From an uncultured Methanosarcinales archaeon (lineage in GTDB: Archaea > Nanobdellota > Nanobdellia > Woesearchaeales > JACJVW01): a stretch of DNA of 59,968 bases. The notes beneath the pieces were generated by a model that worked only from the letters and a program-made list of their open reading frames with translations, did no database searches and was not told the DNA's origin. Below, piece by piece: positions 3 through 50,834 of this stretch; the stretch's first letter is position 1; each line of letters opens with the position of its first letter. The stretch is taken from NCBI GenBank assembly GCA_964473285.1, contig CAYYOI010000004.1, positions 1 through 59,968 of the forward strand, in the 5' to 3' direction. The position numbers were made by a program, and so were the translations under genes.

Positions 3-62
3 TACCTGGACATAATAGAGCAGGAACTGCTTTTTGATTTCTTGGGTCTTGATCAGATTTAG
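3..62 (+). CDS. possible 3' end of an upstream gene, truncated by the window edge
   Basis: Open frame YLDIIEQELLFDFLGLDQI* ending TAG at 60-62; too short to verify. Confidence 0.25.
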   Translation, partial: YLDIIEQELLFDFLGLDQI

Positions 63-167: not shown

Positions 168-228
168 AGGATAGCATCATATCTAAAAGTGCCTCAGAGC
201 AATCGGAGATACTGGAGAAATAGATATC

Positions 229-237
229 TTTTTAAAG
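229..237 (+). promoter_or_regulatory. putative archaeal TATA box of the giant-protein operon
   Basis: TTTTTAAAG with purine-rich sequence upstream; the same motif precedes the S13 operon; purine-rich SD-like GGGGAGAGGGTG lies just before TTG282. Confidence 0.5.
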
Positions 238-281
238 TAGTCTATCAAAACTTACTAAGAGTAAAGGGGAGAGGGTGTAAT

Positions 282-3200: not shown

Positions 3201-6200
3201 TCATCATTTTCTTATGTTTCTGTTCCTTGTCAGGATATAACCTCTAGTGAAAAACTTCAGTTTTATTGCGAAGGATGTGATTCCAATAACTTTTATAGGA
3301 TTCTTTATGATAATTCATCCTCCTCATTCAATTCATATTATTGGGATGGATTTGGCGATTATGAAAAATCATCGCAAGATTATCTTGTCAGTGTTTATAC
3401 AAATAGTTCTTTTGATTATAGTGTCTCTAGAAAACAAATTGAGTGTTCTGATGTCGGAGGAACTATTACTTTTAATTGTGAAGGATGTAGTTCAAATAAT
3501 TCTTATCACATGATGAGCGATGGTTCGAATCCAGGTTTCAGAATCTTTTCAAATACTTCTCTTGTTTATGGATGGGGGCACTCTGAATTACCCTGTGAAG
3601 AACTTTCAGCTGATTCAAACATTGGATTTTCAGCTAATAACCAATTCCGTATCCTTAAATCAGATGATATAGTGATCAATAAGATGGAATGGCTTACTGA
3701 TGATTATACACCTGTTGATCTTGATGTTCCATGCGATATCATAAACAGTGCTGATGAACTTTCCATTTCCTGTCCAGAGTGTACTTCTACCGATTCTTTC
3801 TATCTTTATCGGACAGATGAGCAATCAGGTCATACTGGAGATGCTTATCCTTATACAGATTTGAGTTTTTTTGTTGAAAGCAATACTTCTCTTGATTATT
3901 CCAAAGTTCAAATCCCAGTCAATTGTTCACTTGAAGACCCTGTGTTCTCCTGTCCTGAATGTACAAGTGATGATCATTATAATATCCTTTTAGGAGGTGC
4001 ATCCGGTAACACCTCTTTCTCTTTAGACAATGGTTCAACATGGAGCAATACTGCTTTTGATGCAGGAATTGGAGTGTATGTCTATGGTGCAAGCGATTCT
4101 GATGATATTGTTGTTGCTGATGCTAATGATAATGTTTCACTCCTTAACACAAGCCTGCACACACAATGGACCCTCTCATTCAATTCTCGTGTAAATGATA
4201 TTGCTATTGGTGAAGTTGATGTGGAATCAATAGGTAACGAAGTTCTTGTTGCAACCCAGAATGGCTTATATCTTTTTGATTCGAAGGGAAAGAACATTTG
4301 GAATTATTCAAAAGGTGCAAATACTGTTTTTATACAAGCCCTTGATGCGAGACAAGAAGCATATGCTGGACTTATAAATAATTCCTTGTACAAATGTGAT
4401 GCATCAGGTTGTCATAGTATTGCAACTTTTTCAGATGAGATTACTTCAATTTTAACTGGTGATTTTCATTCAGAACAAGGCTCTGAAATTGCTATCTCTT
4501 TTGATTCCGGACTCTTCAGTGTTTATGATTCATCCATGACAGCTTTAGAAACTCTAGATTTTAAGTCTGTAGTTTCTTTTACTGGGGGAAGGTTAATTGG
4601 TGTAGATCGTTCACAGTTGTTGGTGTCACACCTTAAAGGAATTAGTGCTTATGATTTTTCTCAACCAGAGAATGTTTCTTTACTTATAAATGATAGTGTT
4701 GTTTGGTCCCATATGGGTCTGCTAAGAAATGAAACCATTGATAATTTTGCTTATGCAATAAATATTAGTAACTGTTCTCCTTGTTATGTTCCTTTTGATA
4801 TTGAAACAGATTCTTCTGTCCCACTTCAACTATCTGATATTGATGTGAGGTTTGATTATAATTATAGCCTAGACTATACAGATGATTATACAAAATGGCT
4901 GAAAACATCTGATTTTATTGCAGGTTCACAAATACCTAACAAAGCAATCAAGATTGATTATACTTCTCCTTCGTTTCCTTTGTATGTCCAATATATAAGC
5001 CGTGAAGATCCTAATGAGGACAATTTTGTGTATGATTCCTCATCATTCTGGTTCAGAGACTCATACTGCCAGGGTATTGATACATTAGCTTATCTTGGAT
5101 ATACTTTACTCAATGGTTCATCTTTTCATTGTGATGAAGATTATTTTATCAGTGAAGAAGGTTCTGATTTTTTATGGGTTACTGGTGAGAAAGCTGTTCC
5201 AGTGGAAGTTTTAGTCAGAAATGGTTCAAATGATGCTATGAATTATTATAATATTACTTTAGAAAGAGGTATTGGTCATACTTCAGACTCTTTTCATAAT
5301 GTCAGTTATTCAAGTGATATTAATGAATCCTTCGTTGGAAATTTTGTAGATGTTATTGTAGATACAGATTCAGATGGATCATATGATCTTTTGTATCAAA
5401 ATTTATCTGGGTGCGAAGGTACAAGCTATAGAGTTTGTATTGAAGACCTCAATTCAAATGGTGTACCTGATCAAGTGATAACTACTACTTCTTTGATCAG
5501 TCCAGAAAATCCTTCGGTAAAATATAGGGTGATAGGGTATACAAATGAAATTCCAGAAATAACCTCTGTTGATATTAAACCATCTGGTGATAGATATTAT
5601 TTTGATACTGTATTATTCAATATTACTATAGCTGATTTTGAAAATGACATAAGGCAATTGACATTATATTTGAATACTTCTGGTACTGGCTGGTTTAATG
5701 CTGGCACAGAAACTACATTGACTGATCATGTCATTATTCCTGTGTTACTTAATTCTTCTATGGATGGTGAGTTGTCCTATCGTATTGAATATGCAGATTA
5801 TTCAGAGGAAGCGATTCACCTTGTGAGAAATACCACTACAAATAAAGTTTTCAATGTCAGTAAACCTTCTTTGATACTTGATATTCTTACTGATGATTAT
5901 GAAAGGATAAACCAAAATAATGTGTATGAAGATCATATAATTGCTAATGTTACAAAGGAAGGAACATCTTTTGATAATTATTCAAAAACAGATCTCCTTT
6001 GTGAGCTTTACATAAATACCTCTGAGGGTTACAGGAAACACTCTGATATAACAACAATTAAAAAGGGTCTTTGTTCATTTAATCTTAATAGTGATTCTCC
6101 TTATTCAACCGGCAACCACGATTATTATGTAAGGGTTAGGGCAGATGACCGTTTCTATCCTGCAACCTCTGAGGTGAAGAATGTTTTTATCTATTCTGGA

Positions 6201-9200
6201 TTAAATGCTAACATCTCAATCACACCTGAAACACTATATCGTAATAACGATCATGGAAATAATACCTTGTTGTTATGGAATGTTTCTGATATTAAGGATA
6301 GTACAGGCGATTTAATGACCGGCGCTGCAAATTATAGTGTTTTTTTTGGAGAAACTCTTATCTCCAATGGAACCTGTGATTCAAATGGATTTAGTGGCTC
6401 TTATGATGTTCCTTCATTTGAAGAGTTAGGCACGCATACCATCACAATACTTATCAATAATACTTTATTTGAATTATTTACACATTCAACCCAGGTAACA
6501 GTAAACGATGAACTTTTTGTTGAATTAGTGGATCCTTCTTCTATTGAGCCTGTTTATAAGGACCATGGAGAGGGATTGAATAATATTGATGATTCAACAA
6601 TTGAACTTTTTGTGGTGCTTGAGGATAGCCTAAATATTCCAGTAACTGATGCGACATACAACTTTAATACACCTAATAACTTTGTTGATTGTCTTGAATC
6701 CGGAAAAAAGACAAAAGAAGTAGATTTTGATGATGAACTTGAGCAGCCAATCGTAAAAGAAGGGTTCTATTGTATTTTCCATCCAGAAGACAGTTTGTCT
6801 CTTGGCTTGCAGAATTGGAATTTTACTGCATCACTTAAGAACCATTATCCTGTCAAATACACCGGTTCTTTCAATATCAAGGATACATTTGCCCCTGAGA
6901 TAATGACAAGTCCATCTTCTCCCGGACCTGTGTATATAAGAGGAACATCCAGTTCAAAGCTTTATATTAATTTTGAGGCTCAAGATAATGGGCAGAATGA
7001 GATTTTAAATTATTCATATTCTATAGATTGGGGAGAGACTGCCCTTATTTCAGGTTTTAATCAAAATTCTACTTTAACATATAGTTTCAATATTCCAGAT
7101 GATGAAGTTTTGGGTGAAAAAAGCCTTTTCATTTCATTGAATAAGGAAAATTATAAAGATTATTCAGAACAACTGAATTATCTTGTTCATGGTAGGCTCT
7201 ATGCCTTTACCCTAAATCCTGATAATGGAGTAAATGTAACTGTGGGAGATTCAGGAGGTCTTATCCTGACAATACAGGTAAAAGATGATTTTGATGAACA
7301 TGTACAAGCAAATGTTTCTTTTGTGCATCCTCCAGGATATTGCAGAAATGGAGTTGAATATTTTGGGAATGGAACTTACCAGTGTGAATACATGCCTGAT
7401 CCAAATGTAGCTCCAGGAGATTATACATGGAATGCTATTGCTGAAAAACCTTATCATAAGGAATCTAAAACTGAAGAGCGTAGTTTTACTATAATACAAA
7501 ATGTTCATCTTGAGTTTCTGCAGGATGAGTCTTATTTTAACCGAACAAATCATGTCGATTTGTCTGCGCAGTTGAATGATAAGTTTGGAAATCCTCTTGA
7601 ACTCTCAGGTTATTCATGTGTATGGAGTATTGATGACACTCCACTTGCGACAACTACTACTGATGAAGATGGAATTTGTAATTTTAGTATCCTTGCAGGT
7701 TGTGATTACCTTCCTGGACCACATTCTGTAAGGATTGGACTTAGCAAGCAAGACTCACCTTATACTTTAAAAGAGGAAACTAAAGGGAATATATACCTAA
7801 GAGATAAGGCAGAGGCGTCTATCATAACTCCTACTTCACTTGATGGAATAGCTGTAGGAGATAGCATCTACATGGAATCGTCTATCAGTGATAGCTGCAG
7901 TAATCCTCCTTCCTCAGAAATACCTTATGAAATAGATTGGTATTATTCCCAAATGGGTTCAGATGAAACAATTAAAGTCCTTTCTACTGATGAGGGATTT
8001 TGGACTGTACCTCCTGATGTATCAGGTGAGGGTATAATTTACATAATTGTCGATTATGATTATTTTAACACGAGTTATGGTACTCAGGAAATAGATGTGG
8101 AAGTGAATGATACAACTGGAATTCTTTTCTTGAATGAGGTTGTTGTAAGAAATTCAACATCTCAGAATTTCACCTTGAATGCTCAATTATCGCGTGAAGG
8201 AGACATCCCTATTAATGAGACCTCTATAATAGGTAACTGGAGCGGTTATACTTGTGAATGGTTCATCAATGATCAGTTTCAAGGCACTTCGATTACAAAT
8301 AAAGATGGTCTCTGTTCTATAAACTGGAGTACGACTTGTGAAGATCATTCATCTCTTTATTATCCTTTAGCGATAAATATCTCAAAAGATTCCCCTGACA
8401 TACCAATGTCAACCAATTATCTACAATCAGAGGTTGGAATATATGATAATGCTTCCTTGGAGATTGTTTCTCCTCAAAATCAATCTTCACATGTATATGG
8501 TGAGGAAGTTAATCTAGCAGTTAATGTATATGATAGTTGTGGTATTTCCTCTGCAGATTACAATCTGAATTGGTATTATCAGAAAAAAGACACTAAAACT
8601 ACAGTTGCTTCAGGGAAAAATACGACATGGAATGTTCCATCTCTTGCTCTTGACTGGTCGAATCTAACAGCATCACTTGATTATGCCCTTTATGATTCAA
8701 GCAATTCTACATTAACGCTCCATTTCAAAAGATATCTTAGCCTTTCTGAGCTTATTGTTCAAGAAGGGTTGCGCCAGGGGGATATGTCTCAGGTTCTTTG
8801 TAATATTTCAACCGAGGGGGTTTCAGATAGGTCAAATGTGGAAATACTTTTCATTCTTGATGAGTCTCAGAATTCAACAATAAGAAAAAGGCTATTATCA
8901 TTTGATGACGTAGAACCAGGGGTTGCACAAGGATTACTGGGTGGTAATGGTTCTGTCCGTGAAACTTGGTCTTGGTATAGGGATGTTAAACCATTTCAGG
9001 TTTATGCTAATGATTCTATATGTTTTGATCTTGATACTTCTGGCCTTGAATATACCTCTAGAGGGGATATCTATTTTTGCAAGTCTGAAAGCCTGAATTG
9101 TACTAATTATACTACTGTTGTTTTTAATCAAAGCGCAACAATAAATTCTACTGAACATGGAAACTGGGATTATTGCTTCAATATCACATCACCTTTCTAT

Positions 9201-12200
9201 TTTAGTGGAGGCACTCTTGGGACCTACATGAAAACAAGATCAATGACTACACATAATTCTACAAAAATAACAACTTCACGTTTAGATTCTTCTGATCAGA
9301 TTCTAAGAGGTGAAACTTACTCTTTTTTCAATGGCACTTATGATAATGCATCAAAAGAACTTTTGCAACGCTTTATAGGACAAAGATCCTCATTTAATCC
9401 CAGATCTATCAGAATTGTTGAAGGATCTGAAGAAGTACCTTTTATGTCTGAAGGATTCACTAAATATAGGTCTGATTTTAGTGAGTGGGATCAGGGCATT
9501 AATTGTAAGGCCTCATATTCCTCCGCATTAACATTGACACAGGAAGGTACACATCCGGATTATTGTAGGTATGAATCTAACCTTCTTTCTATACCTATTA
9601 AAGAGGATCTGACAGTGGCCTTCCAGGTTAAAAATGTTAGTATTGGTAGTTGGAAACTTGCTTTCAGGGATGAAGATTCAAAATTACATACTATTGGGGA
9701 ATCAGCATCTGATGGATTATTTACCTTTTCTCTTGAAGATTATGTAGGTATGAATATAACACGTTTTGCACTTTATACACAAGGGTATGATTCAACTGCC
9801 ACTTTTGATCTTTTGGAGGTGGTTGGTGAATCGGGTACTCTTACTTGGACATTAAATGGTACTACTGCTGGGGGCTCTGACCGTAATTATACAATATACT
9901 TTAAAACTCATGAAGATCTTGATACTGATTTATTTTCATTGGGGATCTTACCGGTATATCAGACAGAGATGTATGAGAGAGCCCGTTTTATGAATGGAAA
10001 TACAAATACACTTGTATACACTACAGGGAATGATAAACCAGGGTCTCTGGCAAATATGCTTGATAATCTTGTTACTGATGAAGTCATAACTTCTTGGACT
10101 CGTACAACTGATCAAGGTGATGTACAGAATATACATAAGAATAGTTCTTCATATGGGATTCTTCTTTATGAAAGCAGTTCTGGGTTTACAGATTCAGAAT
10201 CTAATGCTTATACAAGTCCTGAACCCGAAACACTTGCAGCTATAGCAAATTTCCTTGATCAGGGAGGAAAGCTAATATACATTGACAATCGTCTTGATTA
10301 TGATTCAACAGGGCTTTCTGATTTATTCACTTATACCAGTAATACCTGGAACCCATCAACGCATTACTGTAGCCCATATGAGGGGTCTTATCAGGCTTGT
10401 GGACAACCAACAAACGAAACACCTGACACCTTTTATCCTGCTGATAATAATAGTGTGGGGTTTTTGATATTTAATGATCAGATGGTTCACTCATTTACAG
10501 GGGGCGATGGTGAATCATGGATTACTGATGAAAGTGGAACACATTCTCTTATGGTTTCAGAAGGATATTCAACTTTAACCACTGCGCCAGGTGATAGTTC
10601 AAACAGCGGTTTCTCTAAGCACCTCAGTTTTACAGGTAAGCTTGCTGCGCCATATGATCGATATATTCCAACTACCCGGCTTTATGGCCTTGTTCCTTTG
10701 GGTTACACAGATAAGCCTTATTTACAGGTAATCTCTATGTATGCTGATACTGTTGTTGAGGTCTTAAACTCTTCAAATAAAATAATAGATACAAAAACAC
10801 TTGATGAATTTGAACTCTGGCGTACAGGCGCACTTGAGTCTTATCTAGGAGATACATTCATTGTAAATGCTTCTTCACCTGTTCTTGTATATCTGAGCGA
10901 TAAGCCTTATCTTACTGATCCTGTTCCCAGTATTCTGGGTGCCAACAAGCGATTCATGTATTATGATAATGGAAATTTCTTATATCGTGCATTAAACGGT
11001 ACTACAACAGGTTATATCTATGATTCTGTGGGAGAGGTTGATAGCTTCACTATCTCAGAGGGTGAAACCTACAAACCATTCTTATTTCCGGGAGTGTATG
11101 AGGTCCAGACTGATGCGCCTATTGTTATAGAACCTTCCTTATATAGTGGAGTTTCTCGTGTGGTGGATTCATCAGGGTCTGGTATAGGCAAGGAATTTTC
11201 AGTTTCAGCAGAAGCCCTTACTCTAGTAGGTCATGGGAATACCTCTGTTCATTTGAGTAGTGAACCTTCTAAAAAATCAGAGAATTATGATCATATAGGG
11301 TATGAGTTTTATACGTATCTTAGTGGTTCACCTAATATTTTCTCAACTTCACACGATACAACCGTGACAATATCTAATCTTGATTCTGCCGGTTTAGTCA
11401 TAGAAGAAGATGAGCTTCACCTACCACTTAAGGCCAAACTTAAGACTTATTCTCCAAAGACAAGACTTCTTTTGCATTTTGAGGGTTCACCTGGAAAAGC
11501 ATATTCTTTCTATGATAGTTCAGAAACTCAGGTTGCAAATGAATGTAATGTTACTTTAACTTCTGATTCACGATTTGGCACTGCTGCTGATTTTAATAAG
11601 GGTTTGATTGAGGTTGATGCCCTTGATTTCGGGTCAAATTATACTCTTGATTTCTGGATTAAGCATGGGTCTGAAAACCAGACATTTGTATCACAGTATG
11701 AGAATCAGAATCAGGCATTCAATATTAGCTGGTCTTCTGGTCTGCAGGCAGAGTTGATTGCCGGTGAGAATGTGATATTACTTAAGGATGAAAACCCAGA
11801 GTATACTGATTCATGGTATCATGTTGCATTAGTGCATGAAAATTCAACATATAAGCTTTATCTGAATGGTTCATTAATTGATAGTGTTGAAAGTCAGGCT
11901 TATCCTGAACCAGATGCACCTTTTATAATCAATCCAAGGGGTTTAGTTGATGAATTCCGATTTGTAGAAAGTGCTGACGAACCGCTGGGTGGGCTTTATG
12001 GTACTGTTTCTCCAGGATTCTATAGAATCAGTGCGGACAAGCCTATAGGTATTTATGATGGAAACTCACAGACTGAGAGTTATTCTGTATCATATGGTAA
12101 TGATCTTTGGGTACATGTACCATCATGGCCTGGTCATCCTGGTTCACTTTTCATTAATGCAATTGAGGATTCAACTGATGTAACTGTTACTGATCTTACA

Positions 12201-15200
12201 AACAATAAACAGTCAAAGAGATTTTCATTAGATTACGCGGAATCATGGGATTATCATGAAAAGATAGATACAAAAAAGGGCAAGCTTTTTCATATTGCTT
12301 CAGACAATCCAGTGATCGTTCAATCAGGAGTTATAGGCGAAAATATTTATGCACAGCTTCCAAACTTTGCAGGAGATCTAGTATTTACTAAACTTACACC
12401 TGGCAGCGCGTCTCGTACAATAATTGATAGCTCATTTGGCCATGGAATCCTTTATGATCGATTGGAATCTTCAGGAAATAGCTTGAAATCTGATTTAAAC
12501 AGTACTCAGGTCCATGCACATTCTGGAGATAGTTTCCGGTTGAATACTGAAAGAGTGCGGATATTCAGTGAAGCTCCACTAAATGCTTATAGCATCCTTG
12601 GATCAAGTGTTCCTTCACAGACACAATCAATTGCAAGCCTTGATAATCCTGGTGGCCTTGGTAAGGTGTATTCTGTTCGTGCAGGAGAGAATGCAAAGGT
12701 TGCAATTGTATCACTTGCTGATCTTAATAGAATAAGTGTAACTGGAGATCTCTCTACTGAGTTCACTTTAGGTAAAGAGAGTAACCGTCTATTAGATGTT
12801 CCCGGGGGTCTTGTAAGCATAAATGCAACAAAACCTGTAAGTGTTTTTGTTATAGGAGATTCAGGATACGCTCCTTTGTTTGTAACACCTGAGACAGTAA
12901 TGTCGGGACATTCCCAATCATATTCTATAAAGGATACTAATTTTACTGATGTTTCTTTCTTTAGTGGCTCAAGAAGCCCTGTAAAAGTGGTAGGGGATAT
13001 AGCTAATGATACAGTTTCAGTTTACAGGGCATTTTCACCTCATGTGGCATATGAGCTAGACGCAGATATAAATGCAACCGAAATTGGAGATATCAATGCG
13101 GATGGATTAGAAGACATACTTTTTGTTGATGCAGCGAATAATCTGAATTACCTTTTGCCCCATCATGATAGGCAACTGGATGTAAATGTAGAGGAGACTG
13201 CAGGTATTGAACGTATAAATGAACCCACAACAATATCATTTAATCCTGCATATGAAATAACTGATGACTGTCGTGATGTGAGAATATATACCTCTGATGG
13301 AGATGAAATAGGACGTGAGATAATAAAATGCCGGCAATTCAATGTTACACTTATAACACATGTATCATTGGACCCTTATGAAAATCTTTCTCTTCATATT
13401 ACATATGGAAATCCTTTCATTGCTGATGAACCTAAGCAACCAGTCTGTCCTGTGAAAACCAGCGGTTCAATAGAAGCAGGGATTGTGGATTTTGGTGATG
13501 CAGGACAAAGTACTGATAGGTTGGGTTTCAAGAAGACCCTTGAAGATAGTGGATGGATTCTCACAAATTACCAGGATAAGACTGGAACAGATATAAATGA
13601 GACTGCATCATCAAGAAAGGTTAATGCATATACTGAAGATCTTGATTCTTATGATTTCCTTGAATTTACGACTACAGGTGGATGGCCACCCTATGGAGCA
13701 TGGCATTTTGGCGGTAATGATCATTCATATTACGGTCCCCCTCCTGAAAAAATAGATTATTGTTCTGATGAAGGCGCCCCTCAGGTATGGACCATGCCCA
13801 GATATAAGGTGGCTCCAGGCCAAGAGATTACTCTTTGGGGGAGGATGGAATTCGAGGACGATACGCAAGCAACATATGAATGGGATTTTGGTGATGGGAC
13901 TACATCTGGAAAAACTTCATTTTCTCAGGAATCAGATACGCAAAGGGATCTTGCGCAAAAACATACTTATCATGGAGCAATTGGAAAGGTCTTTAATGCT
14001 ACGCTATGGGTCAGGCAAAATAATGGAAAATTCTGCTCACAGAATGTTTTTATCGAGATGGTCGATGATGACCATGACCTTGAAGTCTTCCAGGCATTGC
14101 AGGATGGGCTTAAAGTATTATATGAGAGACAATTGAGTGATGGTCGATGGGGTCATGACTTGACTACATCGACACATGATTATTATGATGGTTCCGGGAC
14201 AGCAATGTCACTTATTGCATTCAGTAATGTGGGGCATCTTACTTCTAATGATCCTTCATCTGATATTTATCATCAAACTGTTAAGGATGCTGCCGATTTT
14301 CTGGTTGATTACATGCAGGTTGTAAATGTTGGTAGTTATACACTTCCTGGATCCCATCATGATAATGGACAAGGCCTGAGTTATTACGCAAGAAGTGGAG
14401 GCAGATTTGGATATGTTGATGGCTTTGTAATGATGGGTCTTGCTTCCACAGCTGATGAATACTATAAGCCTTATGTGATTGATATGGTTGAGAATCATAT
14501 AAGAGTAGCATACTATGGAGGTCACAGGACCTGGAGATATTGTGATAATCGCGCAGGGTTTGATAATTCGGCACATCAGTTTCCAGCCCTTGGGATGGAG
14601 GCTGCTGAACAGATTATGGGTATAGATTTTGACTTGGAGACGGGTGGACCATATGATATATGGGGGCCAAATAGAGACAGAATTTATTCCACTTCATGTA
14701 GTTCAGGTTCAAGTAAGGGAAGATTTGGATATACTAGTGCAACTTGCAAAACAGGATATAGTCGAATGGGTTCTCATGTGGGCGGACTGACTAATCTTGC
14801 ATCAGCTCATGAGCCTGTATCAAGTGTGTATGTTCAGGATGCAATAGAGCATTCCTGCAATAATTGGCAATATCACAAGAATAATTACTACAATTTATTT
14901 GGAATTACTAAAGGGCTTAGATTATTTGAAGTGACAGATTTGAACTGTGCATCTCATGAGAATTTTGATTGGTCACGTGATCTTGAGGAGACTGTTTTGA
15001 CGCATCATTCACAAACAAATAACTTTGAATCATGGGATAAAGATTTTCACCGGAATAGAGCTTCAGGTCTTGCATCTGCGTTGATTATTTTGTCTGGAAC
15101 AGTTGTAGGAGCAATACCAATGGCTGATGCTGGTGAAGAGATGGAAGTGATTACAGGTGTAGACGTGTTGATGGATGGTTCTGAGTCATATCATCTGAAT

Positions 15201-18200
15201 CCGAATCAGAAAATCCAGACATATCACTGGGATTGTGAAGGAGATGGCAATTTTGAATATGTAGGTGAATCTCCTTATTATAATTGTTCATGGAATTCTC
15301 CAGGGACATACAATGCAAAACTTCAGGTAAGTGATGATAGTACTCCTACTTTAACAAATACAGATAGTGTAAAAATAGAAGTGAAAGATACTAGTCAAAA
15401 TGTTCCTCCAGTTGCAGATGGAGGAGAGGTCTATACCAATTGTTATGCATTGACGAATACTACATTTGATGCATCAGGTTCATTTGATTACAACGGAGAT
15501 AACCTGACATACCATTGGGATTTTGATGGTGACGGGGATTATGATGATTCTTCCAACATCTCTTCTCCTACAAATGAATTTGCATTCAATTCTCCTGGTG
15601 AGTATTATATCGCTTTGAAAGTAAGGGAAGCAGATACAGATATGCATCTCACTGATACTCATAAGCGTATCAAGGTTGTTTGCGATAGAGAAGATACAAG
15701 TTACTATTATTGGAATAAGGGCTACAATACAATGGATAGATTCAGATCTTATCTTGAGAATGGCGGAGTGATGTGGATTGATAATAGTGGAAGTTCAGGA
15801 GATGGTTATGGGGGTTTCTTTGACCTTTATGCTGGAGATTTCACAGATGGAAATGGTTATGTGCGTTGGAATACAAGCGAAGGCGATACTACTGAAGGAT
15901 TGATGCAGTCTTCCTACTCTTCATCAAGGCTATTGAATTATCCAACCTCTTTAGATGAAGAAGATTTGAATACTGAAATCATGTTATGGACAAATGGTTC
16001 AGCAGGGGGTAGTGGTATTGATATAAGTGAAGGCTTTGTTCCTATCCTTACACGTAATGGATATGATATGTTGGTTGCAAAACGTTATGGATGTGGTTAT
16101 GTTCTTGCTAGTGGAGGTGATTTTAGCTCAGATCTATATGCACCTGATGATATCTCTGATCCGGCTCCATATAAACTAATAACGAATATGATCTCTTTGT
16201 CTACTGGCCAACACAGCGCTTATCCTCCTTTGTCTGTTGATATAGAGGAGGGAGATTCAAGCTTTGCTTTTTCATATCAAGGTGGGGACACAGGTATAGA
16301 TACCTCATCAAACTATGGATTGTCTGTTGGAAATACTGATTCAGATCAGCAGGCTGAGATCTTGTATGCTGCAGAAGATGGAACCTCAAGAATCTTTGAT
16401 TTTATGGAAAAATCCGATGAACAAACAAGTACACCTTATAGTATAGTAGGTTCAACTATATTTAGCTATGAGAACAGTACTCTATTTGGATTAATTAAAG
16501 AGGACAATACTACTTTGCTTTATGATGATTCATTGGAGGACTCCCCTAGGAATCTTGAACATATCTCTTTATTTGATATCGCTTCAGTATCACTTGACCA
16601 TGACCATTTAATATTTATCAATTCTTCCCAAGAACTTGTTCTTTTTGATCCTGTCACAAATACTGTTAAAAATCTAGGTTTCAAGGTTGGCAGATCTGTA
16701 ACAGCAGGAGATTTTGATGATGACCTTTATGAAGAGATTGCCTTTATCACTGCCAATAAAACCCTTGGCTTTTATGATATTATTGATGATGTTCTTTTGG
16801 TTACCAATATATCTCTTCTTGACAAGAGACAGAGTCTTGGTGCAGGAGATCTCGATGGTGATGGAATTGATGAAATCACATACCTTGTTAATGGTACCTT
16901 GAAGATATATGATTCCTCTTCAACATACCATGATTATCTTATTGTAAAGGGTGAGGGAAGAGTTTCTTTGTCGGTTCCTGTTAATCCTGTATTTGAGCAG
17001 AATTCAAGTATAAATTCAAAAATTATTAGCTATAATGGTACAGGAGTTTACAGGTTGCCATCCGGGTGGGATACTTTTACATTTAACAGCACTGAATCTT
17101 TTATTTCAGGAGCGAATAAACCCTACATACTTGATGATTTTGATTATCCAGACAGTATATATTCCAATGGATGGTCCCAATGTGGCACAAATTTTGATTG
17201 TTCAACCCCTGTAAACTCATCATTTAAGACTACCTTCAAGACTTCTTTTTCAGGGATAGGCTCACTAAAATTCAATACTGAAAATGGACAAGGTGGTATT
17301 GAGCGCGAAGTAGATAAACCTTTATCATCCCATAGCAAATTAAATTTTGCATGGATGGTTCCATCTTTTGATCAAGGAAGCAGTGACCCTAATATAATCC
17401 TTAAAGTCCTTTTTGATGGAGGAGCTTCACTTAATTACTATATTAAGACGAGTTCTTATGGGTCTATGGTATGTGGTTTTTCAGGCTATATCTGCATTAC
17501 AGGTGACAATCTCAAAGATGCAGGGTTTGATAATTGGTATACAGTAAAACGTGATCTATTAGAAGATTATGAGGCCGAAGGTTTGTCAGGATCCCCAACC
17601 TCTATTAAAGCAATCGGATTATTTGTTCAAAATAGTGATAATGTTCCTTTCGAATTTTATCTTGATTCCTTGCGTCTTAATCACGCCAATCCAGAAATTG
17701 AATTATCTGATTCTGTGCAGGTAAGCAATCATCATGGTAATGTGCCTGAACTCACTTATTCAATAGGTGAAGAAGAAACTCTTCAATTGTCATGTTCTCC
17801 TGATGATTTGGGATATGATTATTTATTCTGCGAACTTGATGACAGAATTAAAATCAAGGCTACAAATGATACATTAGTCTTTAGTGGTACTGGTGATGAT
17901 ATATATGCCACTCCATTAATCTCAGAAGGCAGAAACGGAACTCTTACTACTCTCTCACAGAATCAGATTAATTATATCACTACACCTCAAGATTCTGCTA
18001 CAGTCACTATAGGGGGTTCTGATAAAGTCATAAATGAAAATGAGTTTATGCAAGTAGGCTATGATGGAACCACTCATGTTACATCTAGTTCTCCTTTTAT
18101 TGCATTATCTTCAGCTGTGAAGGAAAGGCAATCTCTCAATATTAATAGCACTTTCAACTATTCATACAACCTTAATTCAAGTTGTTTCTTTGATAGCCAG

Positions 18201-21200
18201 TGCACTAGTGGGTTCTGTAATAAGGGATTTTGTACCACTCATAATTCATCATTACATCTTGGCGTACTTTTGGACGAATGGTTTATTAATAATGGGAATG
18301 AATACAGCTGTGTAGGCTCATATGATTCAGATGGGAATCTTTCCTGTCATAATGGCTGTGGTGCTCCTGGAAAAAATTGTACTTTCATGCTTGATATTCC
18401 AACAATTCCAATCAGTTCACATGCTAACCATCTGTTGTTCCTTAATATGAACAGTTCAGGACAAGGAGGAAAAGTATCAATATATCTTAACGATTATCTT
18501 ATTGCTGAAAATCTTACACCTCCAGTTAATGACTATGGCAGTCTGCATGTAAAAGTACCACACAGATTCATAGAATCAGGTTCATTCAATGATCTTGTTA
18601 TAGAAAGTACGGGGACTTCAGGTGTAAGTCTAGATTCCTTTATTTTCATTGCTGAGGATACCGTTCTTGTGTCTGGCCAGGTTGAATTGGCAGTTGTTGC
18701 CGATCTTTTTTCTTCCTATGATAATCTTGAAGTCAATATCTCCTCTCCTTTTGAAACTTTACCTACGCAGCTTGCATTTAAAATGAATGGGAATACTGTG
18801 CTTGATTCTGATCGTAATGTAGAGAATGCAGGGCAAGTCTATGTTGAAACCTTTATATCTGAAGCTGCTTCTGAGTCTTTTGTAATCTCTGCAGATAGTG
18901 GACTTGGCAGTGATGAGATCACTCTTATTCCAGTAAATCAGTATTCATATTCACCCCATTATGGATATTATCTTCCTGGTTTGTTTGATCCTGCTACTGT
19001 TTCAGAATATGATTCAAATAAGATGATAAGGCTCCTTTATAACGTATTCTCAGAAACCGACGTTGCTGGCGGCCTTGATTATGGACTAGGTAATCTTGAA
19101 CGTGTACATCGCCATTCAGACTGGTGGAACAAAACTTATCTTTACAGGATTCCTTTGACTCTTCATGCTGGCGAATTTGATCGTAAATCTTTGGCAGTTT
19201 CAATAGATCTTAATGTAACTCCTTTACTAGATAATGTTACAGGTGCATCTCAACCTGCATTCAGAATCAATGGTTTAAGAACTGATTCTATATTAGAAGA
19301 AACAGACTCAAGTGGTGTGGCTTCTTTTATTTGGGACACTACTTTGGAGGAAGGAGGACCTCATTTGATTGACTGTATAATCAATAATGCTTCAGAACGT
19401 TATATCATAAGAGAACCTGATTCATTATCAGATATTTCTGTTGTAGCTGATAAGATTAATATAAGCTCTGATTATTTAGATAGTCGTGAGATTGATCCTT
19501 TCAATTCTTCTAAGAGGCTTGTGCCTTCAGAAGTAGTATATCGTTCAACACATCCTATTGATAAGTATCCTGATAAGCTATATCTTGCAGCCAATGCTAC
19601 TACAAAATGGCAGACTTCGTCAAGACAAGGCGAGATATATCCTATCGATGGTGCAACAATTCATTTTTATATTATAAAAGACCTTACAATAAGGGATCAT
19701 CTTACATGTACAGTTAATCTGACAGAGTATGAAGCCAATCAAAAAGATGGTGAAAACCACTGGTATGATCCTTACCATTGTCATGTTGTGTATGATCCAC
19801 TCAATGATTCTGCCGTAGGTTCTTATAAAGTAATAGTCAATGCTACAAAACCTAACTGGAGTTCGGAGTCAAGAGAGAAGAATTTTTCTATTCGCGGTTA
19901 TCTTGTAACAAATATCAGTGAACCTGAGAGTGATATCTTCCTAGGTTCAACACTAAATCTTGATGCAGATGTTTTGACTGACATAAATACATCTCCTGAT
20001 GATTTAAATGTCAAATGGTATTTTCGTGAAACAAATGAGACTTGTTCATCCTGGACAGATACCAATATCACTGGCCAATCTGCTGGTTTTTCAATTGGCT
20101 GTGACCTATCAGCAACCAAAACTTATAATCTTATGGCTCGTGCATTTGCAAAGGGTTATGAAAGTCCTAGGACATTTGGGAATTATGAAAATTGCGAAGA
20201 GCAACGAAGCAATGCAGACATTCTTGAGTTCCGTGTAAATACTTATGTCAGACCCAATATAACAAGTGGTGTGCATGGCGATCCAGACGACTATATAACA
20301 CTTGATTCTGATGTTGTTGTTACTGATTCAGGAGAATTGAGTATTGATTGTCAGGTCCTAAAATCCTGTGATTCTATTGAAACACCAATAAATGTGCCTT
20401 CCTATGCCGCAAATCTTTCATGTGAAGGATGTACAAATCCCAATGTTACATGGCCTCTGAGTACATCTCCTGATTCTGAGGGGACCTATACCTTTACATT
20501 CGATTTTTCAGGGGAAGAGCTTGATAAGGATTATAATTTCACCTGTTCAATCAAAAATTATTCATATTACTATACAAATCCTGCAACTGTCACAAAGACA
20601 TTGAGACCTGTATCACATATTGGTGATCCTGATTATTGTAATTATGATGGTTATTGTAATGATGGAGAAACATGCCTTAATTGTCCTGAAGATTGTGGTT
20701 ACGATAATCTTTTTAAGGGAGGTGTTTATAGCGATATGGATCTGGTGGAGGGTGAAAATTATACTTTGCATCAGGAGACTGGATGTGGATGTTATTCGGA
20801 GGATTTCTTTTGTGATAGTGTTTATGAAGTAACTTCATCTGCTTGTAGTGATTGCCAGAATTCAGTAACACCTAAAGCCCCTACTATTGTAAGGCAAAGA
20901 ACTGATGATTGTTGGGGTCTTTGTGATGGTACTAGATGTGATGGTTCTTGTGATGGTGTTTCTTCAGATAATGTGATGGGTAGTGGGGAATCTTTCTTTA
21001 TATATGCAAATATTGCAGACCCCAATGAGCAAGATAAATTTGACGCGTGGATTGAAGATACTGATGGAACAAAACTTGCTGATATGGAACAGGTTAGTGG
21101 GACAAAATATGAGTCTGTCATACCATTTAGTACCGATTCCTTTGTAACTGATAAAACCTATCTGATTATTGCCGAAGATGATAGTCAGGATAAATTAAGA

Positions 21201-24200
21201 TCAAATAAAACTGTTACAGTCTATAAAGATGATGGAATGCCCTCAATCGATTCTTTTACAGTGGAGCCTACAGCACTTGCAGAGGGGAATACTATTACTA
21301 TCGGAGTCACAGTCTCAGATTTAGGAGAAGGTGTTTCTCATGTCATCCTGCAAAATGGAACTTCAGATAAGACTTACCTTGAAAGGCAAAGTGAGACTTA
21401 CTTCCAAGGCGAATTGATAGCTAAAGATACTACAGGTTCAGGAAATATGGATATAAATATCTCTGTGTATGACCGTTCAGCTAATGGGCCAGTTGTAGAT
21501 TCAACTACTGTTACTGTTGATACAAATCCACCTCATATCTATGATTTGTATGCTTCTGAAACTTATTTTGAACCCCCAACTAGCACATTTGATATTACTT
21601 TTAGTGCTACTATAGAAGATAGTAATATAGAAGATGCATGGGTGTATAGCCCTGATGAAAACCAAAAAATTTGTGACTTAAACCTTAATGGTGAAAGTCA
21701 TGAATGTACCGTTACATTTGAGGGAGGTTATCCAAAGTTTGGTTCATCTGATGGTACAGCAAAGGCGACCTATCAATTCCTTGCAAATGATACTTATGGA
21801 CAGATGTCGGGAAGTGAAGGGATCTGTAATGATGATTGTAAATTCATATTTTATGATTCAACACCTCCTGAAATAAATTCAATTCTTTTGGATGATAAGA
21901 GTTGGCCTTCAAATCATATGTATGTTCAGTCAGGAACTGATGTATCAATAAAGGCAGAAATAACTGACAAACCTGTCAATGACAGCTCTTATTTTATCTC
22001 ATCACGTGAATTGCTAGATTCAAACTTACAGTCAGTAGGTTCCCTTGAACATTATAATGAGGATGTATGGAATATAACACGAACTATAAATGCTGATTCG
22101 ATATATCATTTGTATGCAGAAGATGAAGCAGGACATTCAGAACAAGTAATGCTTAACTTCACTATAGATGATATTTCACCTGATATAACTATTCTGAGTC
22201 CTGTATCTGATGATGTTGTCAAAGGGACAATTTCATTAGTTATAAACATAACTGAACCTCATCTTGAGACAGATGCCATTGAATACCGTGTGCTTACTGA
22301 TGGTAGTGAGAGTATACCCTGGAGTAAACCTATTCATGATACAGGTGGAATCTATGAAGATTCGATTGCTACTTCAGTGGATCTCAATGATAGTGAAGAT
22401 ACCGTTATTCAGGTTAGGGCTAATGATACTGCAAAAAATAAAGGTTCTACAAGCGTATCCTTTATTGTTGATAATACAAAACCTACTATCACAATAGACT
22501 CACCTCTTGAAAGCTCAACGATAGAAGGACTAGTGTGGCTTAATGCAACGGTTGAGGATGAGACAAGTGGCTTGGCAGAGGTAAGTTATAGAATCGATGA
22601 GGAAGGATTTAATTCATCTTGGGATACTATTGATCCCTATGCTTACCAATTCAATTCATCACATTATATTGATGGTAATGTAAGCATATGCATACGAGCC
22701 TTAGATAATGGTAATAACCAACGTGAGGTTTGTATAGATCCTGTTAATATAGATAATAACGCTCCTGTAATCAATATAACTTCTCCTGAAAACCTTACTC
22801 ATTTGTCTGGTGCAGTAAACTTGAGCGCACAAATCTATGATGAAGCTGGTAACCCTAATCCTGGTTCATATAGCTGTGGTTTTGCTTCTACAACTGAATC
22901 CTCCAATATTGTAGAAGATGAGAACTTTACCTGTAGCCTTTCGACAAAGGGATTGGATAATCATACATGGTATGATCTTTATGTTAATGCATCAGATAAA
23001 CTTGGTCATACTTCAATCAAATCCATCCAGATTTGGGCAGATAATCTACCACCTAATGTTTCACAAGTAACCTTGAGTGATTCAATCCTTTATGAAGGAC
23101 AAGAAATTGAAGTTGTTGTTAATGTAAGTGATGAGTCAGATTTCTCAATTAAGAATGTTACGGTAGATTCACAGATTATTACATGGAATGGTAGTATTTG
23201 GGTTGGTAATGTGACACCTTATATGGATTCTGAGCCCTTTGATAATCTTTCAATAGTTGTTTATGATCATGCAGGAAATAATGTTGATGTTACTTCTCCT
23301 TTTGAATGGGATATTGGTGATGTATCCATTTGGAACTTCACCAGCAATGCAATGTATGGATATTCTTCATCTGAACAAGAACTTGATTTTTCAGTATATG
23401 CTAAAGATGATGATGACAATCTCAAGAATGTAACAGTAGGTTCAATAGAAATGACAAATTCTGGAGGTAATCGATTCGTAGGGACTGGAACTCCTGAACA
23501 AGCCAATGGTTGTGATTCAGAAGGATTGTGCACTCTTTCAGCTGTTGTTTTTGATGAAGGAGAAAATTCTAACAATGTCTCTTTAAACCTTACAATTGAT
23601 AATACACCTCCTTTAATCCATAAATTTACCATTTCCACGCGTGATTCTTACATGAATTCATATGATAATTACTCATATCTTATCCAGGCAGGTGACAGTA
23701 TTGGATTACTAGAAGCAAAAATAAATGGAATTAGTATGAATGCAAGTTCCATGTCTACTTCTGTAAACTATACTTTGTCAGCGAATGCTACTTCTATTGG
23801 ATGCACTGCTCCTGTAGCACCATATTCTAACTGTACTATCCAGGGTTCAGTCTATGACTGGGTCCTTAATAATGACACAAAAACTATTAATGTTAAGGTT
23901 GATGATTTCAAGCCAATCTTTTCAGGTATATCTGTAAATGGTCAGTTAACCACTCCTTTAGTCTCCCGTGACGGAATGGTGTTTCTTGCGGTAAATCTTT
24001 CAGGAGAAGGCCCTAATACAATCCATCAAGTCATTGCCGAACCTACTGCTCATGAAGCAGGGAACCAGTCACTTAGTTGGAATGGAAGCCTATGGACAGG
24101 TGATATCAAGATTGATAATGATAATTATATCAATCTGAGCGCAACAGATAAGGCCTCGAATACTGCATACAACAATTCCTTTAGAATAGATGTAGATCTT

Positions 24201-27200
24201 TCTTATCCTGAAATAAGAAATTTCACTTCAGATGCACTAGATGCTTATTCTCGCAATGATTCTGTAATCAATTTCACAGCTGATGTAACTGATACTAATC
24301 TGGATGAAGTTTTTCTCTCCTCTAATCATACTGATGAATGGTATTTAATGAAGAATAGTTCACCTTCAAGATGGTACTTGAATATGACTCCTGCAATCCT
24401 TGGTTGTCCTTCTAATGGATATTGTAATATCCAAATTGAGGCTACAGATCTTGTTAATAAAACACAGAATGATACTTATACTTTGATTATGGATACAATT
24501 GAACCTTCAGTTTCTATGGTTAGCTTATATAATTCTATTACTGGAGTTGAGGATCTTGTTAAGTTTAACGGATCTTTGGAGGTCATTGTCAATGTTACGG
24601 AAACAAATGAGACAATCCATTATATAAAAGCTGAAGACCAAGAACTTTATTGGAATAATCAATACTGGTATGCTTCAAATATTACAGTAAGGAATACAGC
24701 TTCCCTGAACTTAACAATTGCAGATAAAGCTGGTAATTTGGCTTTTGTTAATGAGTCATATAATTTGGATGATGAGAAACCCATTATTCAAAACTTCAAT
24801 TCATCTGAGAGATATAATGTCTCTAATCCTGAGACAACTATAAATTATACTATCAAACCTAGGGATGATAATGGAATATATCGTGCTGTATTGAGATCTG
24901 GTAACACTGAAATGTTACTTTCTAATCTAGATCCTGTTGATTTTACAGTCCTTGATTATTACTATATAAATGAAATTATGTTAGGCCCTGATTTTGGATG
25001 CACTGAAAATAATCAATCATGTTTGCTTGATATAATTGTATATGACCGGGCTTATAATAATAATACCCTAAATCTTAATATAACCATTGATATGGTTGAT
25101 CCAGTAGTTCATTCATTCACTTCGCCTGATTTCATTGAAGGAATAAATAATACCAAAATCCTACAGACCAGTAAAGTTGTTAATTGGACTGCTGAATTAA
25201 CTGATACAAATCTAGTGGCATCTTATATCCATCTAATAGAGTCTAATGATAATTCACATAATGAGAGTGTACATTTAGGTTTGGTAAAAAAAGAGGAATA
25301 CTGGACAAATAGTAGCTATCTTGAACTTTTTGGTGCAACTAATGGGTCATATGTCATGGAAGTAGTTGCACTTGATAAGGCTGGTAATTCCGGAAAAACC
25401 AATCTTACTTTCCTTGCAAGCAGTGCTGCGCCTGAAATACATTCATTGGCAGTAGACAAAAGTTTTGTTGAAATTGATAAGAATGTTACTGTTTATGTGA
25501 ATGTGACCAGTTCAACTGCAGTAAATTATACCCATATTCATGTATTTCCTCCAGGGCAAGATGCCCATATAGCTGAGATGGTCTTGGTAAGAAATTATTC
25601 CTCAGAAGGCATTAAAGATGAAAATGGCCTGACTGTATATGGCGGAATCTATGAATACTCTTATAGAGGAGTGTATGATGGAACACATAATGTCAGTATC
25701 TATTCAGTTGATATAGAAGGAGATGGTGCGGATCATGAACATCGTTATAATAATCTCTTTACTGTACTAGGTAAGACTACTGGGGCGTTGGATCTCAATG
25801 TTGAACCTTCACAACCAATTGATAACTTGACATATGGTTATAATCAGACTTTGCTTGTCAATATTACGCTTAATAATACTGGAAAAGTAAATATGTATGA
25901 TGCCGTTTTGGATATTGATGAGTTTGAAGGGACATATCTTAATAGTTCTGAATATGTATGTGATCCTGTTATTTTACCTGATGAGACATGCAAACTTGAG
26001 AGAAACATAACTGTAACTTCCCAGGCCCCTGTTGGACAATCTAATATTAATATTCGAGGGTTGTGGGATAATCCAGAAGGGTCTGTGGATTCAAACTCAA
26101 CAGCTCATACTGTAACAATAGAACCTAATCATATGATAAAGATCCTGAATCCTACTCTGTCATACTCAACACTTTATAATCAAAACCTTACAGTTGGAAC
26201 CATTCTTTTACAGTCTTATGGTAATACAAATATAAAGAATGTGCAGTTCAGTTTTGATTCTATATCAGGTTCCATACCTCCTGTTTTTGTAAGTGATTCA
26301 GGATTCGATATAAAAAAGAATGAGGTCTATCCTGTTAATTTGAGTGCGCAGGTCAATGGAAGAGGAATGTTCTTTGCTAATCTTACAGTTGAACTTGATG
26401 GTTTGTGTGAACCCGAAAGTAATTGTTATGATTGGAAACTTCTTACTTTATCTGTATATGATTTTATCAATCTGTCACTATTAAGTCCCTATGGTGAAAA
26501 AGACAGAGGTTACCTTGATATTGGGTGTGAAATCAGAAATCTTTCGGAAAATTTACCTGTGGAATCTTATTCGGTATATCCATTTATTTTAAATGATTCC
26601 TCTGCGTTTCAGCAGTTTGCAGTATCTGAAGAAATAGTCATTCCATCTGATTATCTGTTGGAACTATCTCCAAAATATCTAATTACTAATGCCACAATTA
26701 CTTTTAATACCAACGAAAGACATATGTTGACGCTTTCATCTGATTATGGTTCAGAACCATTCAATAATACCTTTGAGGTATCTAATGGCACTATGGTAAA
26801 CATTCCTGTGAGTTCACTAAATAATTTTACACCAACAGAAGATTGTGTCTTAGATCCAGAGTATCCAGAAGACAATTGTTTTTACTTACTAGAGTTTAAC
26901 TCAAATGATCCTTTCACTGCTGATATATTCATCAATATAACTTATATTACTCCTCTGTCAAATTGTCCTGATGGTACCGAATATACTGGTACTTACTGTT
27001 ATTATAATAAAAGCTTAGAAGATACTTGTCTTGAGGGTTTTGTAGATAAAGATACTTATTGCGCGCATGTACCTCTTTTGAAGGATCAGTTCAAAACTGA
27101 TGTAAATGGTATTATGGAACATACAGTAAACACTTCACTTTATCTACCTGGTGAATATCAAGTTGGCTGTGCCATAATACGTGATGATTCACTGTTCTAT

Positions 27201-47198: not shown

Positions 47199-47860
47199 TA
47201 GGGCCACCCAATATTTTTATAGAGATGTGTTCTGGCGATGGATAAAATTCCACTTATGTTGACTTCCGGACCGCTGCCTTGATCCAATTGCCCATAGTTT
47301 ATTTCATCGTTGAATCTTTCGAGAATAAGGACCGATTGTTCAGCAATCTGCTTGTTCTTCCTCTGGAACATGTGGTGTACCCCATACATGCCTTGTTCTC
47401 CATCGTCTTCATGCTTGAATTTTTTATATGATCTATTTTTCAGGTTTTCGTAGTCATCAAACTGGGCATTGACAAATTCACTGAATTCCTTTGTAAGTTC
47501 TAGAACCGGCCCTTGTGATTCCATGGAATGAATTTGGGTATTGGCATCCAGTAGTCGTATCTGTATCTGTCTTTCTTTTATTATGTTTTCATTCTTTTGG
47601 AAAAGGTCAGGAATCTCTTCTATACTCCTTGGGTTGGGATTTTGTAGGAATATATCTATATACCCATACTCATAGGTCTCGTATAGTGAAACAATGGAGA
47701 CTAGAATTTTTTGATATTCTACAAATAGTTCTTCAGGTGTATTTTCTTCTTCAATTCCTGAGAAAGAAATTTGGGAGATCCTTTGTGACTTATCTTCTCT
47801 TGGTTCTGCAGTGCAACCTAGGATTGTTATAAGAACTAATGCTAATATAACCTTATACAT
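47198..47860 (-). CDS. putative lipoprotein
   Basis: MYKVILALVLITILGC lipobox-like N-terminus; TTTTTAAG TATA-like motif ~23 nt upstream. Confidence 0.75.
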   Translation of the reverse strand: MYKVILALVLITILGCTAEPREDKSQRISQISFSGIEEENTPEELFVEYQKILVSIVSLYETYEYGYIDIFLQNPNPRSIEEIPDLFQKNENIIKERQIQIRLLDANTQIHSMESQGPVLELTKEFSEFVNAQFDDYENLKNRSYKKFKHEDDGEQGMYGVHHMFQRKNKQIAEQSVLILERFNDEINYGQLDQGSGPEVNISGILSIARTHLYKNIGWP

Positions 47861-50833: not shown

Positions 50834-50834
50834 T

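Follow-up and report, generated by a model that had tools for sequence, protein, structure and literature searches.

What is a module of three PKD domains and a helical ring doing thousands of residues deep inside a giant archaeal surface protein, where did it come from, and how is it wired into its surroundings? The question is raised by a 59,968-nt stretch of DNA (the window, i.e., the whole stretch analysed; contig CAYYOI010000004.1, assembly GCA_964473285.1) from an uncultured archaeon that was deposited under Methanosarcinales and is placed by GTDB in the Woesearchaeales. More than half of the window is taken up by one giant open reading frame (ORF), the residues of which are numbered here as aa = (nt-189)/3+1. 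An earlier note on this DNA described, in the region 13040-16920, a PKD-toroid-PKD-PKD cassette inserted in a class I glutamine amidotransferase (GATase)-like domain, itself inserted in a split FG-GAP propeller. We find that the cassette (aa 4529-5165) is a real evolutionary unit, one compact module. With a probability of roughly 60%, the block is a copy, acquired by capture, of a secreted module that is widespread and mostly bacterial, and it sits in frame in a giant archaeal surface protein. The earlier observation is partly confirmed, in that it holds largely for the cassette and for the layout of motifs, and the earlier interpretation is partly supported.

The peptide motifs quoted in the earlier note were all found where it had placed them, in one frame of the ORF 189..35624 and with no stop between them. 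Three PKD domains are recognized by Pfam in the giant ORF (PKD_4, PF18911, 7e-21, 74.5 bits against a cut-off of 27, three stretches; PKD, PF00801, 55.6 bits against a cut-off of 23.5). A word-based search among longer proteins returned a single protein, P0003, an 883-aa PKD domain-containing protein from a Thermodesulfobacteriota metagenome-assembled genome, and one colinear BLASTP match joins it to the cassette across all four domains (702 columns, 27% identity, E 8e-38). With the helical domain of P0003 as a query, 193 of 7,999 scored candidates reached E ≤ 1e-3; the family therefore numbers at least 193 proteins, and the counts given below rest on the best 120 of them (P0003-P0122). All of these 120 proteins match the giant's fragment, with E-values from 1.6e-56 to 4e-06 and typically over aa 4544-5147, at an identity to the cassette of 21-30%. 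Thus, the proposed cassette of ~640 residues stands as described.

The relatives also show in what form the module usually occurs. The whole region from PKD1 to PKD3 is spanned by one high-scoring segment pair in 98 relatives, the match begins within the first 100 residues in 90 of these 98, and a Met start followed by a hydrophobic N-terminus is present in 82 of the 90. In most relatives, the module starts just after the signal peptide and forms the N-terminal portion of a mature secreted protein of 800-1500 aa; thus, the cassette corresponds to the body of a common type of secreted protein in its mature form. The family proteins are 500-1,500 aa long and most of them carry PKD domains, whereas some contain type IX secretion system (T9SS) sorting, dockerin, CARDB, or carboxypeptidase-regulatory domains. 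In the 10 examined relatives with an internal cassette, its neighbours are PKD, Ig, and T9SS sorting domains in a linear array. Named members belong to the Thermodesulfobacteriota, Zixibacteria, Cloacimonetes, and Desulfobacterales, with one archaeal short form, P0045, from the Bathyarchaeota. A cyclase-type Pfam domain (PF13243) was found in only one of the 120 proteins, the other 119 having no toroid domain in their precomputed Pfam lists. The family occurs across many bacterial phyla and seems to be uncharacterised; our literature searches returned no description of the module, nor of giant DPANN proteins combining PKD domains with a toroid. The giant's copy shares with this family the four-domain order, the colinear alignment, and all invariant toroid residues. 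It departs from the family in its position, since the relatives carry the module directly behind a signal peptide and continue with T9SS, dockerin, CARDB, or further PKD domains, whereas the giant's module starts at residue 4529 of 11,811 and has orphan segments on both sides.

The fold of the segment between PKD1 and PKD2 was addressed with an alignment of giant aa 4410-5600 and the 71 of 120 family proteins that are no longer than 950 aa and have a match covering the cassette. With this alignment, AlphaFold2 (AF2) gave a predicted local distance difference test score (pLDDT) of 70-97 over aa 4521-5165 (model residues 112-756), and a predicted template modelling score of 0.61 for the 1,191-residue model. 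The PKD domains appear in it as beta-sandwiches. In a structural search among representatives, the top match of the toroid was squalene cyclase 1gsz (Z 23.4, root-mean-square deviation [rmsd] 3.1, 282 residues aligned), followed by drimenyl diphosphate synthase 8zg0 (Z 22.1), the single-domain myxobacterial "squalene-hopene cyclase" 8paj (Z 21.7), and GH76 mannanases (Z 21.0-20.5). Superpositions drawn from a Foldseek list gave Z 21.9 for 8pak_B (276 residues aligned of a 347-residue chain) and 21.4 for 8paj_B. The all-helical ring of the model and these superpositions together make the segment a predicted (alpha/alpha)6 ring whose nearest counterparts are cyclase-like chains; at the level of the model, the proposed toroid with a squalene-hopene-cyclase-like fold is confirmed. 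A lead from the ESM Atlas (0.86) agrees with the cyclase-like direction, as do, marginally, the matches of the family profile among structure sequences (two copalyl diphosphate synthases, both 0.057; 8pak, 0.19). By sequence, the toroid has no Pfam match (including SQHop_cyclase_N/C and Prenyltrans, E ≤ 10) and no match in NCBIfam or among PDB sequences; a word-based search restricted to proteins of comparable length returned nothing.

The likeness to 8pak/8paj, 1gsz, and 8zg0 concerns the (alpha/alpha)6 fold (Z 21.4-23.4, rmsd 3.1-3.4, 273-282 residues aligned), the superposition covering the whole chain in the case of 8pak. In contrast, the identity of the toroid to these class II cyclase and 8pak-type chains is only 10-14%, the SQHop_cyclase models of Pfam do not match it, and GH76 and epimerase toroids score nearly as high. 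Complement thioester domains are more distant: C3, C4, and C5 chains appear among the fold matches, but at Z ~15 versus 21-23 for the cyclase-like chains, and the giant's toroid has no CGEQ thioester motif. Since terpene cyclases, GH76 mannanases, and epimerases all fall within Z 20-23, the fold names no ligand and no reaction. The residues that are invariant over the 120 aligned toroids are all kept in the giant (Y4742, G4777, W4782, Y4784, D4792, S4794, Y4848, Y4901, K4908, and L4968). The catalytic acidic motif of class II terpene cyclases is DxDD, and no DxDD-like acidic cluster was found among the toroid-family columns conserved at 85% or more. The suggestion that the toroid is a catalytic warhead gains no direct support: the invariant residues are kept but specify no chemistry, and the relatives with an internal cassette carry it in line with other domains.

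In the earlier note, bacterial best matches of the cassette were to count as a sign of capture, and such matches were obtained. The relatives are mostly of bacterial type, and when species genomes were scanned with P0106, the best relative, 80 loci were kept, 14 of which match the giant's toroid in tblastn. All 14 have bacterial record titles and come from the Gemmatimonadota, GN15, Bacteroidaceae, Deferrisomatales, Akkermansia, Zixibacteria, several Gammaproteobacteria, Nitrospirae, and WOR-3. At E ≤ 1e-3, the giant's toroid was not found in any of 400 further genomes from the phylum, each with a completeness of 90% or more; 7 of the 40 nearest relatives match a 1,195-aa query, in each case only within PKD2-PKD3. 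Composition, suggested earlier as a further check, was compared with the rest of the ORF. The GC content of the cassette and that of its third codon positions (GC3) are slightly raised (0.401 and 0.286, versus 0.358 and 0.238 for the rest of the ORF), the cassette having the highest GC in the ORF, but its codon-usage distance reaches only the 91st percentile of windows. Apart from short repeats of PKD motifs, no direct repeats flank the cassette. The module would have been acquired by horizontal transfer and have strongly diverged since then, and in the giant it may form a ligand-recognising or ligand-processing head that meets a glycan or an isoprenoid lipid on the cell surface of a host or partner.

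Several observations weigh against capture. Identity is low throughout the family (21-30%), and in the tree the giant's copy sits on the longest of all branches (2.28), with no donor close to it; the shift in GC is small, its percentile being drawn from windows that overlap the cassette, and that of codon usage is modest as given above. An archaeal member exists (the short form P0045), the absence of the toroid from the phylum genomes rests on a single divergent query, and the fold matches, which span terpene cyclases, mannanases, and epimerases, name no ligand or reaction for the proposed head. Furthermore, runs X2-X4, which represent independent samples, hold pieces of the gene, none of which bridges a cassette junction. 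Some of these points would equally follow if the cassette were old and vertically inherited and looked foreign since giant surface genes turn over fast and the relatives had lost or diverged theirs. Such descent would account for the very long branch without a close donor, it agrees with the presence of a second, separately branching family member in the same window (44290-45705), and it fits the finding that same-genus genomes lack the giant gene altogether and not the cassette alone. It is nevertheless unlikely, if far from negligible, given that the toroid was found in none of the 400 other phylum genomes, the exclusively bacterial titles of the 14 toroid-matching loci, and the slightly raised GC3.

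A joining of a bacterial fragment into an archaeal contig during assembly might be suspected, since the DNA is metagenomic and the cassette is the GC maximum of the ORF, but we consider such a chimera scarcely credible. The insert is in frame in an ORF that runs over 35 kb without a stop, and the cassette is only 21-30% identical to any relative. In addition, a 57,423-nt contig made by a different assembler, from a run that is probably the source of the assembly, covers positions 12800-17200, and with them both junctions, with 0 differences and at an even depth of 25. Low-depth short contigs that are identical or near-identical to 13902-14387, 14736-15229, and 16597-16897 were observed in microbial-mat metagenomes (three runs of a second study); therefore, the organism or the gene recurs in such habitats.

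The segments on both sides of the cassette (Table 1) bear on how it is wired. The earlier note took them for the two halves of a GATase/DUF4159-like domain. Scanned alone, the C-half has one match to DUF4159 (PF13709; E 0.053, 13.5 bits against a cut-off of 25.9), which covers 25 residues (RFRSYLENGGVMWID...) and profile positions 69-93 of 202. The match disappears when aa 4415-5378 (964 aa) or aa 4292-5590 (1,299 aa) are scanned whole, with no second stretch reported, and the N-half (aa 4415-4520) matches no Pfam or NCBIfam family in any scan, including the first third of the DUF4159 profile. The call of a GATase/DUF4159-like domain is not borne out by these scans. DUF4159 was found in none of 401 genomes of the phylum at 1e-5. 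The C-half has no NCBIfam match, no relatives in genome contigs, metagenome contigs, or same-genus genomes, and nothing usable among PDB sequences, and a phmmer search against 1.84 billion representative proteins yielded a single match (E 3.2e-4), confined to a Gly/Ser-rich stretch. DUF4960, proposed for the C-half by the ESM Atlas (0.92, with 127-130 shared features; unnamed clusters, 0.93), was rejected, as it was not found in the genome.

The supposed contiguous equivalent of the two halves (aa 3238-3538) has weak matches to DUF4350 (E 0.011 and 0.005); DUF4159 and DUF4350 both belong to what we take to be the GATase-like clan. Its similarity to the halves is no better than that of shuffled sequences: Smith-Waterman z-scores are -0.01 and 0.36, with 236 and 154 of 500 shuffles reaching the score, and BLASTP gives no match at E ≤ 10, so that the equivalence is not confirmed. 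The C-half and this segment have only one short motif in common, [FY]L[DE][NQ]GG, and the ORF contains no copy of it other than those at 3355 and 5188. The arguments from sequence for a GATase reading are thereby weakened. What is left of them is the start of the DUF4159 match in the middle of the profile, ~17 residues past the cassette end; a domain of this kind would thus need to have its first third elsewhere, as expected of a split domain. Together with the single cysteine of each half and the shared motif, this start may be taken as a hint. An identical 14-nt string encoding DFGD is present at 13487-13500, in the N-half, and at 13883-13896, in the WDFGDG motif of PKD1, probably by chance.

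The flanking FG-GAP blades of the earlier note fared unevenly. The calcium motif of FG-GAP units, searched as a regular expression, occurs at five sites only in the 11,811 residues (1725, 4300, 5381, 5507, and 5553). The four motif units near the block share a common 44-residue pattern, but a hidden Markov model (HMM) built from them finds no further unit. Downstream, Pfam FG-GAP (PF01839) is barely above its cut-off (22.3 versus 22.1 bits, E 1.2e-4, two stretches) and FG-GAP_3 reaches 1.5e-3, whereas the upstream unit remains below (FG-GAP_3, E 0.061, 14.4 versus 26.9 bits); FG-GAP is not reported when the 1,299-aa query (aa 4292-5590) is scanned. In the sequence register, strand ends of the form hydrophobic-[YF]-D recur five times downstream, every 40-44 residues, and one upstream and five downstream units would be compatible with a split six- or seven-bladed ring. 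The pLDDT of AF2 over aa 5373-5700 is 24-46. The stretch between the upstream unit and the N-half (aa 4336-4408) may form a small beta-sandwich, as judged by eye.

Two architectures were compared for the block as a whole. If it is fully nested, the cassette would occupy the loop from the third strand to the next helix of a flavodoxin-like (class I GATase/DUF4159-like) domain, this domain would itself lie, with the small sandwich, between FG-GAP blades, and the toroid would be at the tip of a side branch. If it is a plain linear chain, each half would be a linker or a small orphan domain in its own right, the aa 4300 motif would be a stray calcium loop belonging to the beta-rich region before it, the five downstream units would make up a repeat domain of their own, and the cassette would be one of many beads. 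Arrangements of the nested kind are known: the alpha-I domain of integrins lies between blades 2 and 3 of the propeller, and the CUB domain of complement C3 contains the thioester toroid as an insert. The former is a precedent for an alpha/beta domain between the blades of an FG-GAP propeller, and the latter for an alpha/alpha toroid that interrupts another domain and has Ig-like domains on either side, although in the giant protein both wirings are proposals only. The sole Pfam match of the C-half, starting at position 68/69 of the 202-position DUF4159 profile just after the cassette, favours nesting, and a linear chain leaves this start unexplained. The same is true of the cysteines (exactly one in each half, 4420 and 5302, whereas PKD1 and PKD3 each have a pair at their start and end), as a linear chain leaves one unpaired cysteine in each extracellular half. 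It is also true of the lone upstream unit, the only other near FG-GAP unit, which stands directly before the block: four of the five calcium motifs bracket the block, the regular 40-44-aa units number five downstream and one upstream, and a lone blade cannot fold by itself. The restriction of the [FY]L[DE][NQ]GG motif to the C-half and the DUF4350-like segment points in the same direction.

On the other side, the DUF4159 match is short, far below its cut-off (13.5 versus 25.9 bits), and lost in a joint query, the N-half matches nothing, and the comparison of the halves with the contiguous segment equals that of shuffles (z -0.01 and 0.36), so that no significant family match ties the two halves; DUF4159 was moreover found in none of the 401 phylum genomes at 1e-5. 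The upstream FG-GAP match is below its threshold, the blade HMM recovers nothing but its four training units, and a lone motif would fall within ~1,100 aa of the cluster by chance with a probability estimated at ~0.2. A linear order is the default architecture of the toroid family, the flanks in the 10 relatives with an internal cassette being PKD, Ig, and T9SS domains in line; therefore, nesting would be peculiar to the giant protein. A linear order is also the default of the giant DPANN proteins described in PMC10266531. The structural models discriminate little here, as the flanks have a pLDDT of 23-46 in the model of the alignment, to which unrelated tails of homologues aligned over the flanks may contribute, and a single-sequence AF2 model of aa 5166-5700 has a mean pLDDT of 32.5. 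On this evidence, a linear chain is given slightly less than even odds, at least one level of nesting is possible but rather doubtful, and full nesting is unlikely. It would be more improbable still that three-level nesting is combined with a horizontally acquired module whose toroid, at the tip, grips or remodels an isoprenoid lipid or glycan of the host as part of a contact machine driven by a VirB4 ATPase.

Table 1. Features of the giant ORF and of its block 13062-16958, with the stand-alone toroid gene of the window
Feature	Position (nt)	Residues (aa)	Strand	Description and evidence
Giant ORF	189..35624	11,811 codons	+	No internal stop; ORF list and translation
Signal anchor, giant ORF		34-52		Hydropathy
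Ectodomain, giant ORF		~11,370 aa		
"Contiguous equivalent"	9900..10802	3238-3538	+	Weak DUF4350-like segment; motif FLDQGGKLIYID
Lone FG-GAP-like unit, "blade 0"	13062..13193	4292-4335	+	Calcium motif GDINADGLEDI; same 44-aa pattern as three downstream motif units; FG-GAP_3 E 0.061
Stretch of ~73 aa ending ..HITYGN	13194..13412	4336-4408	+	No Pfam/NCBIfam match; Cys pair 4361/4381
"N-half"	13431..13748	4415-4520	+	Orphan; ends ..LDSYDFLEFTTTGG and a Pro/Gly/Tyr-rich linker; one Cys (4420); AF2 pLDDT 30-46
Cassette PKD1-toroid-PKD2-PKD3	13773..15683	4529-5165	+	Colinear BLASTP match to P0003; family matches; AF2 confident
PKD1	13782..14060	4532-4624	+	Pfam PKD 2e-07, PKD_4 5.4e-06; AF2 strands at model residues 123-215
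Predicted (alpha/alpha)6 toroid	14073..15095	4629-4969	+	AF2 helices at model residues 220-560; no Pfam match
PKD2	15129..15386	4981-5066	+	Pfam K319L-like_PKD, PKD_4; AF2 strands
PKD3	15399..15677	5071-5163	+	PKD_4 2.5e-19, best stretch; AF2 strands
"C-half"	15684..16322	5166-5378	+	Orphan; opens with helix-strand motif MDRFRSYLENGGVMWIDN; one Cys (5302); AF2 pLDDT <50
Five 40-44-aa repeat units, "blades A-E"	16305..16958	5373-5590	+	Three with FG-GAP calcium motifs (5381, 5507, 5553); all end in a hydrophobic-[YF]-D strand
Membrane helix, giant ORF		11424-11442		Hydropathy; the only one besides the signal anchor
C-terminal HerA/DUF87/VirB4-like P-loop ATPase, giant ORF				Pfam DUF87/HerA 2.5e-15, TrwB, FtsK; Walker A
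Stand-alone toroid-family member, 471 aa	44290..45705		-	Signal peptide, small N-terminal domain, toroid; no Pfam match

The protein that carries the cassette is, judged by its domain plan, a membrane-anchored surface protein of the SPEARE type from a small-genome (DPANN-type) archaeon. The source assembly amounts to 1.71 Mb in 114 contigs, its relatives having 0.6-2.1 Mb, and the far end of the window holds archaeal information genes (an Rpb3/RpoD-type RNA polymerase subunit and ribosomal proteins S4 and S13). As described, the SPEARE-type giants of nanohaloarchaea consist of a signal peptide, an ectodomain, a membrane helix, and a VirB4/TraG-like ATPase, with a second ATPase encoded downstream; SVXNc_0300, at 9,409 aa, is named as the largest protein in a cultivated archaeon, and BNXNv_0298 has 8,880 aa (PMC10266531). 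The giant ORF resembles them in its Sec-type N-terminus, huge ectodomain, single membrane helix, and C-terminal, cytoplasmic VirB4/TraG/HerA-like ATPase, as well as in the gene for a second DUF87/HerA ATPase directly downstream (35621-37615, plus strand), which overlaps the giant ORF by 4 nt. Strain-specific presence appears to be a further shared trait, as two same-genus genomes were found to lack an orthologue of even the C-terminal part of the giant. The giant ORF is longer (11,811 versus 9,409 aa), and its ectodomain, very little of which is explained by Pfam, is mostly orphan sequence, in contrast to the ~75 Ig-like repeats of SPEARE. The toroid module is another difference.

The second toroid of the window lies 9 kb downstream of the giant gene (44290-45705). 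It is matched by the giant's toroid with E 6.2e-5 (BLASTP 7e-7, 22% identity to the giant's copy), but it is nearer to the bacterial family (BLASTP 3e-51, 33% identity), and the two copies are not sisters in the tree. With the giant's toroid as a query, these two are the only such toroids across the 401 phylum genomes. The start of the stand-alone toroid gene is overlapped by 4 nt by a gene at 45702-47207 (minus strand), the 501-aa product of which has a membrane helix at its N-terminus, contains numerous ~30-aa repeats rich in paired cysteines (C..C..CY patterns), and matches no Pfam family. Past the giant operon, a 1,864-aa ORF (38652-44246, plus strand) has as its sole Pfam hint the C-terminus of D-glucuronyl C5-epimerase (8.9e-05, below the cut-off), a family that represents another alpha/alpha toroid; BLASTP shows no similarity of this ORF to the PKD-toroid family. 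Further on, the genes at 49865-55408 (minus strand) encode an O-methyltransferase, a type I phosphodiesterase, a UbiA prenyltransferase, a xylose-isomerase-like TIM barrel, TatD, and myo-inositol-1-phosphate synthase, and may constitute an inositol-lipid or polar-head-group cluster.

The giant surface proteins of DPANN archaea are regarded as their organs of contact with the host, yet almost nothing in them can be functionally assigned. Amid 11,000 residues of orphan sequence, the cassette is a defined, foldable, and conserved module; therefore, it should be expressible alone and testable for ligand binding or activity. If the nesting is true, the block would be a rare natural case of a two-deep domain insertion. 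The giant's copy also exposes a large family of secreted toroids, with at least 193 proteins in many bacterial phyla. In the best-supported reading, the giant is a SPEARE-like protein that likely carries a captured, intact, bacterial-type PKD-toroid module as a ligand-recognising head.

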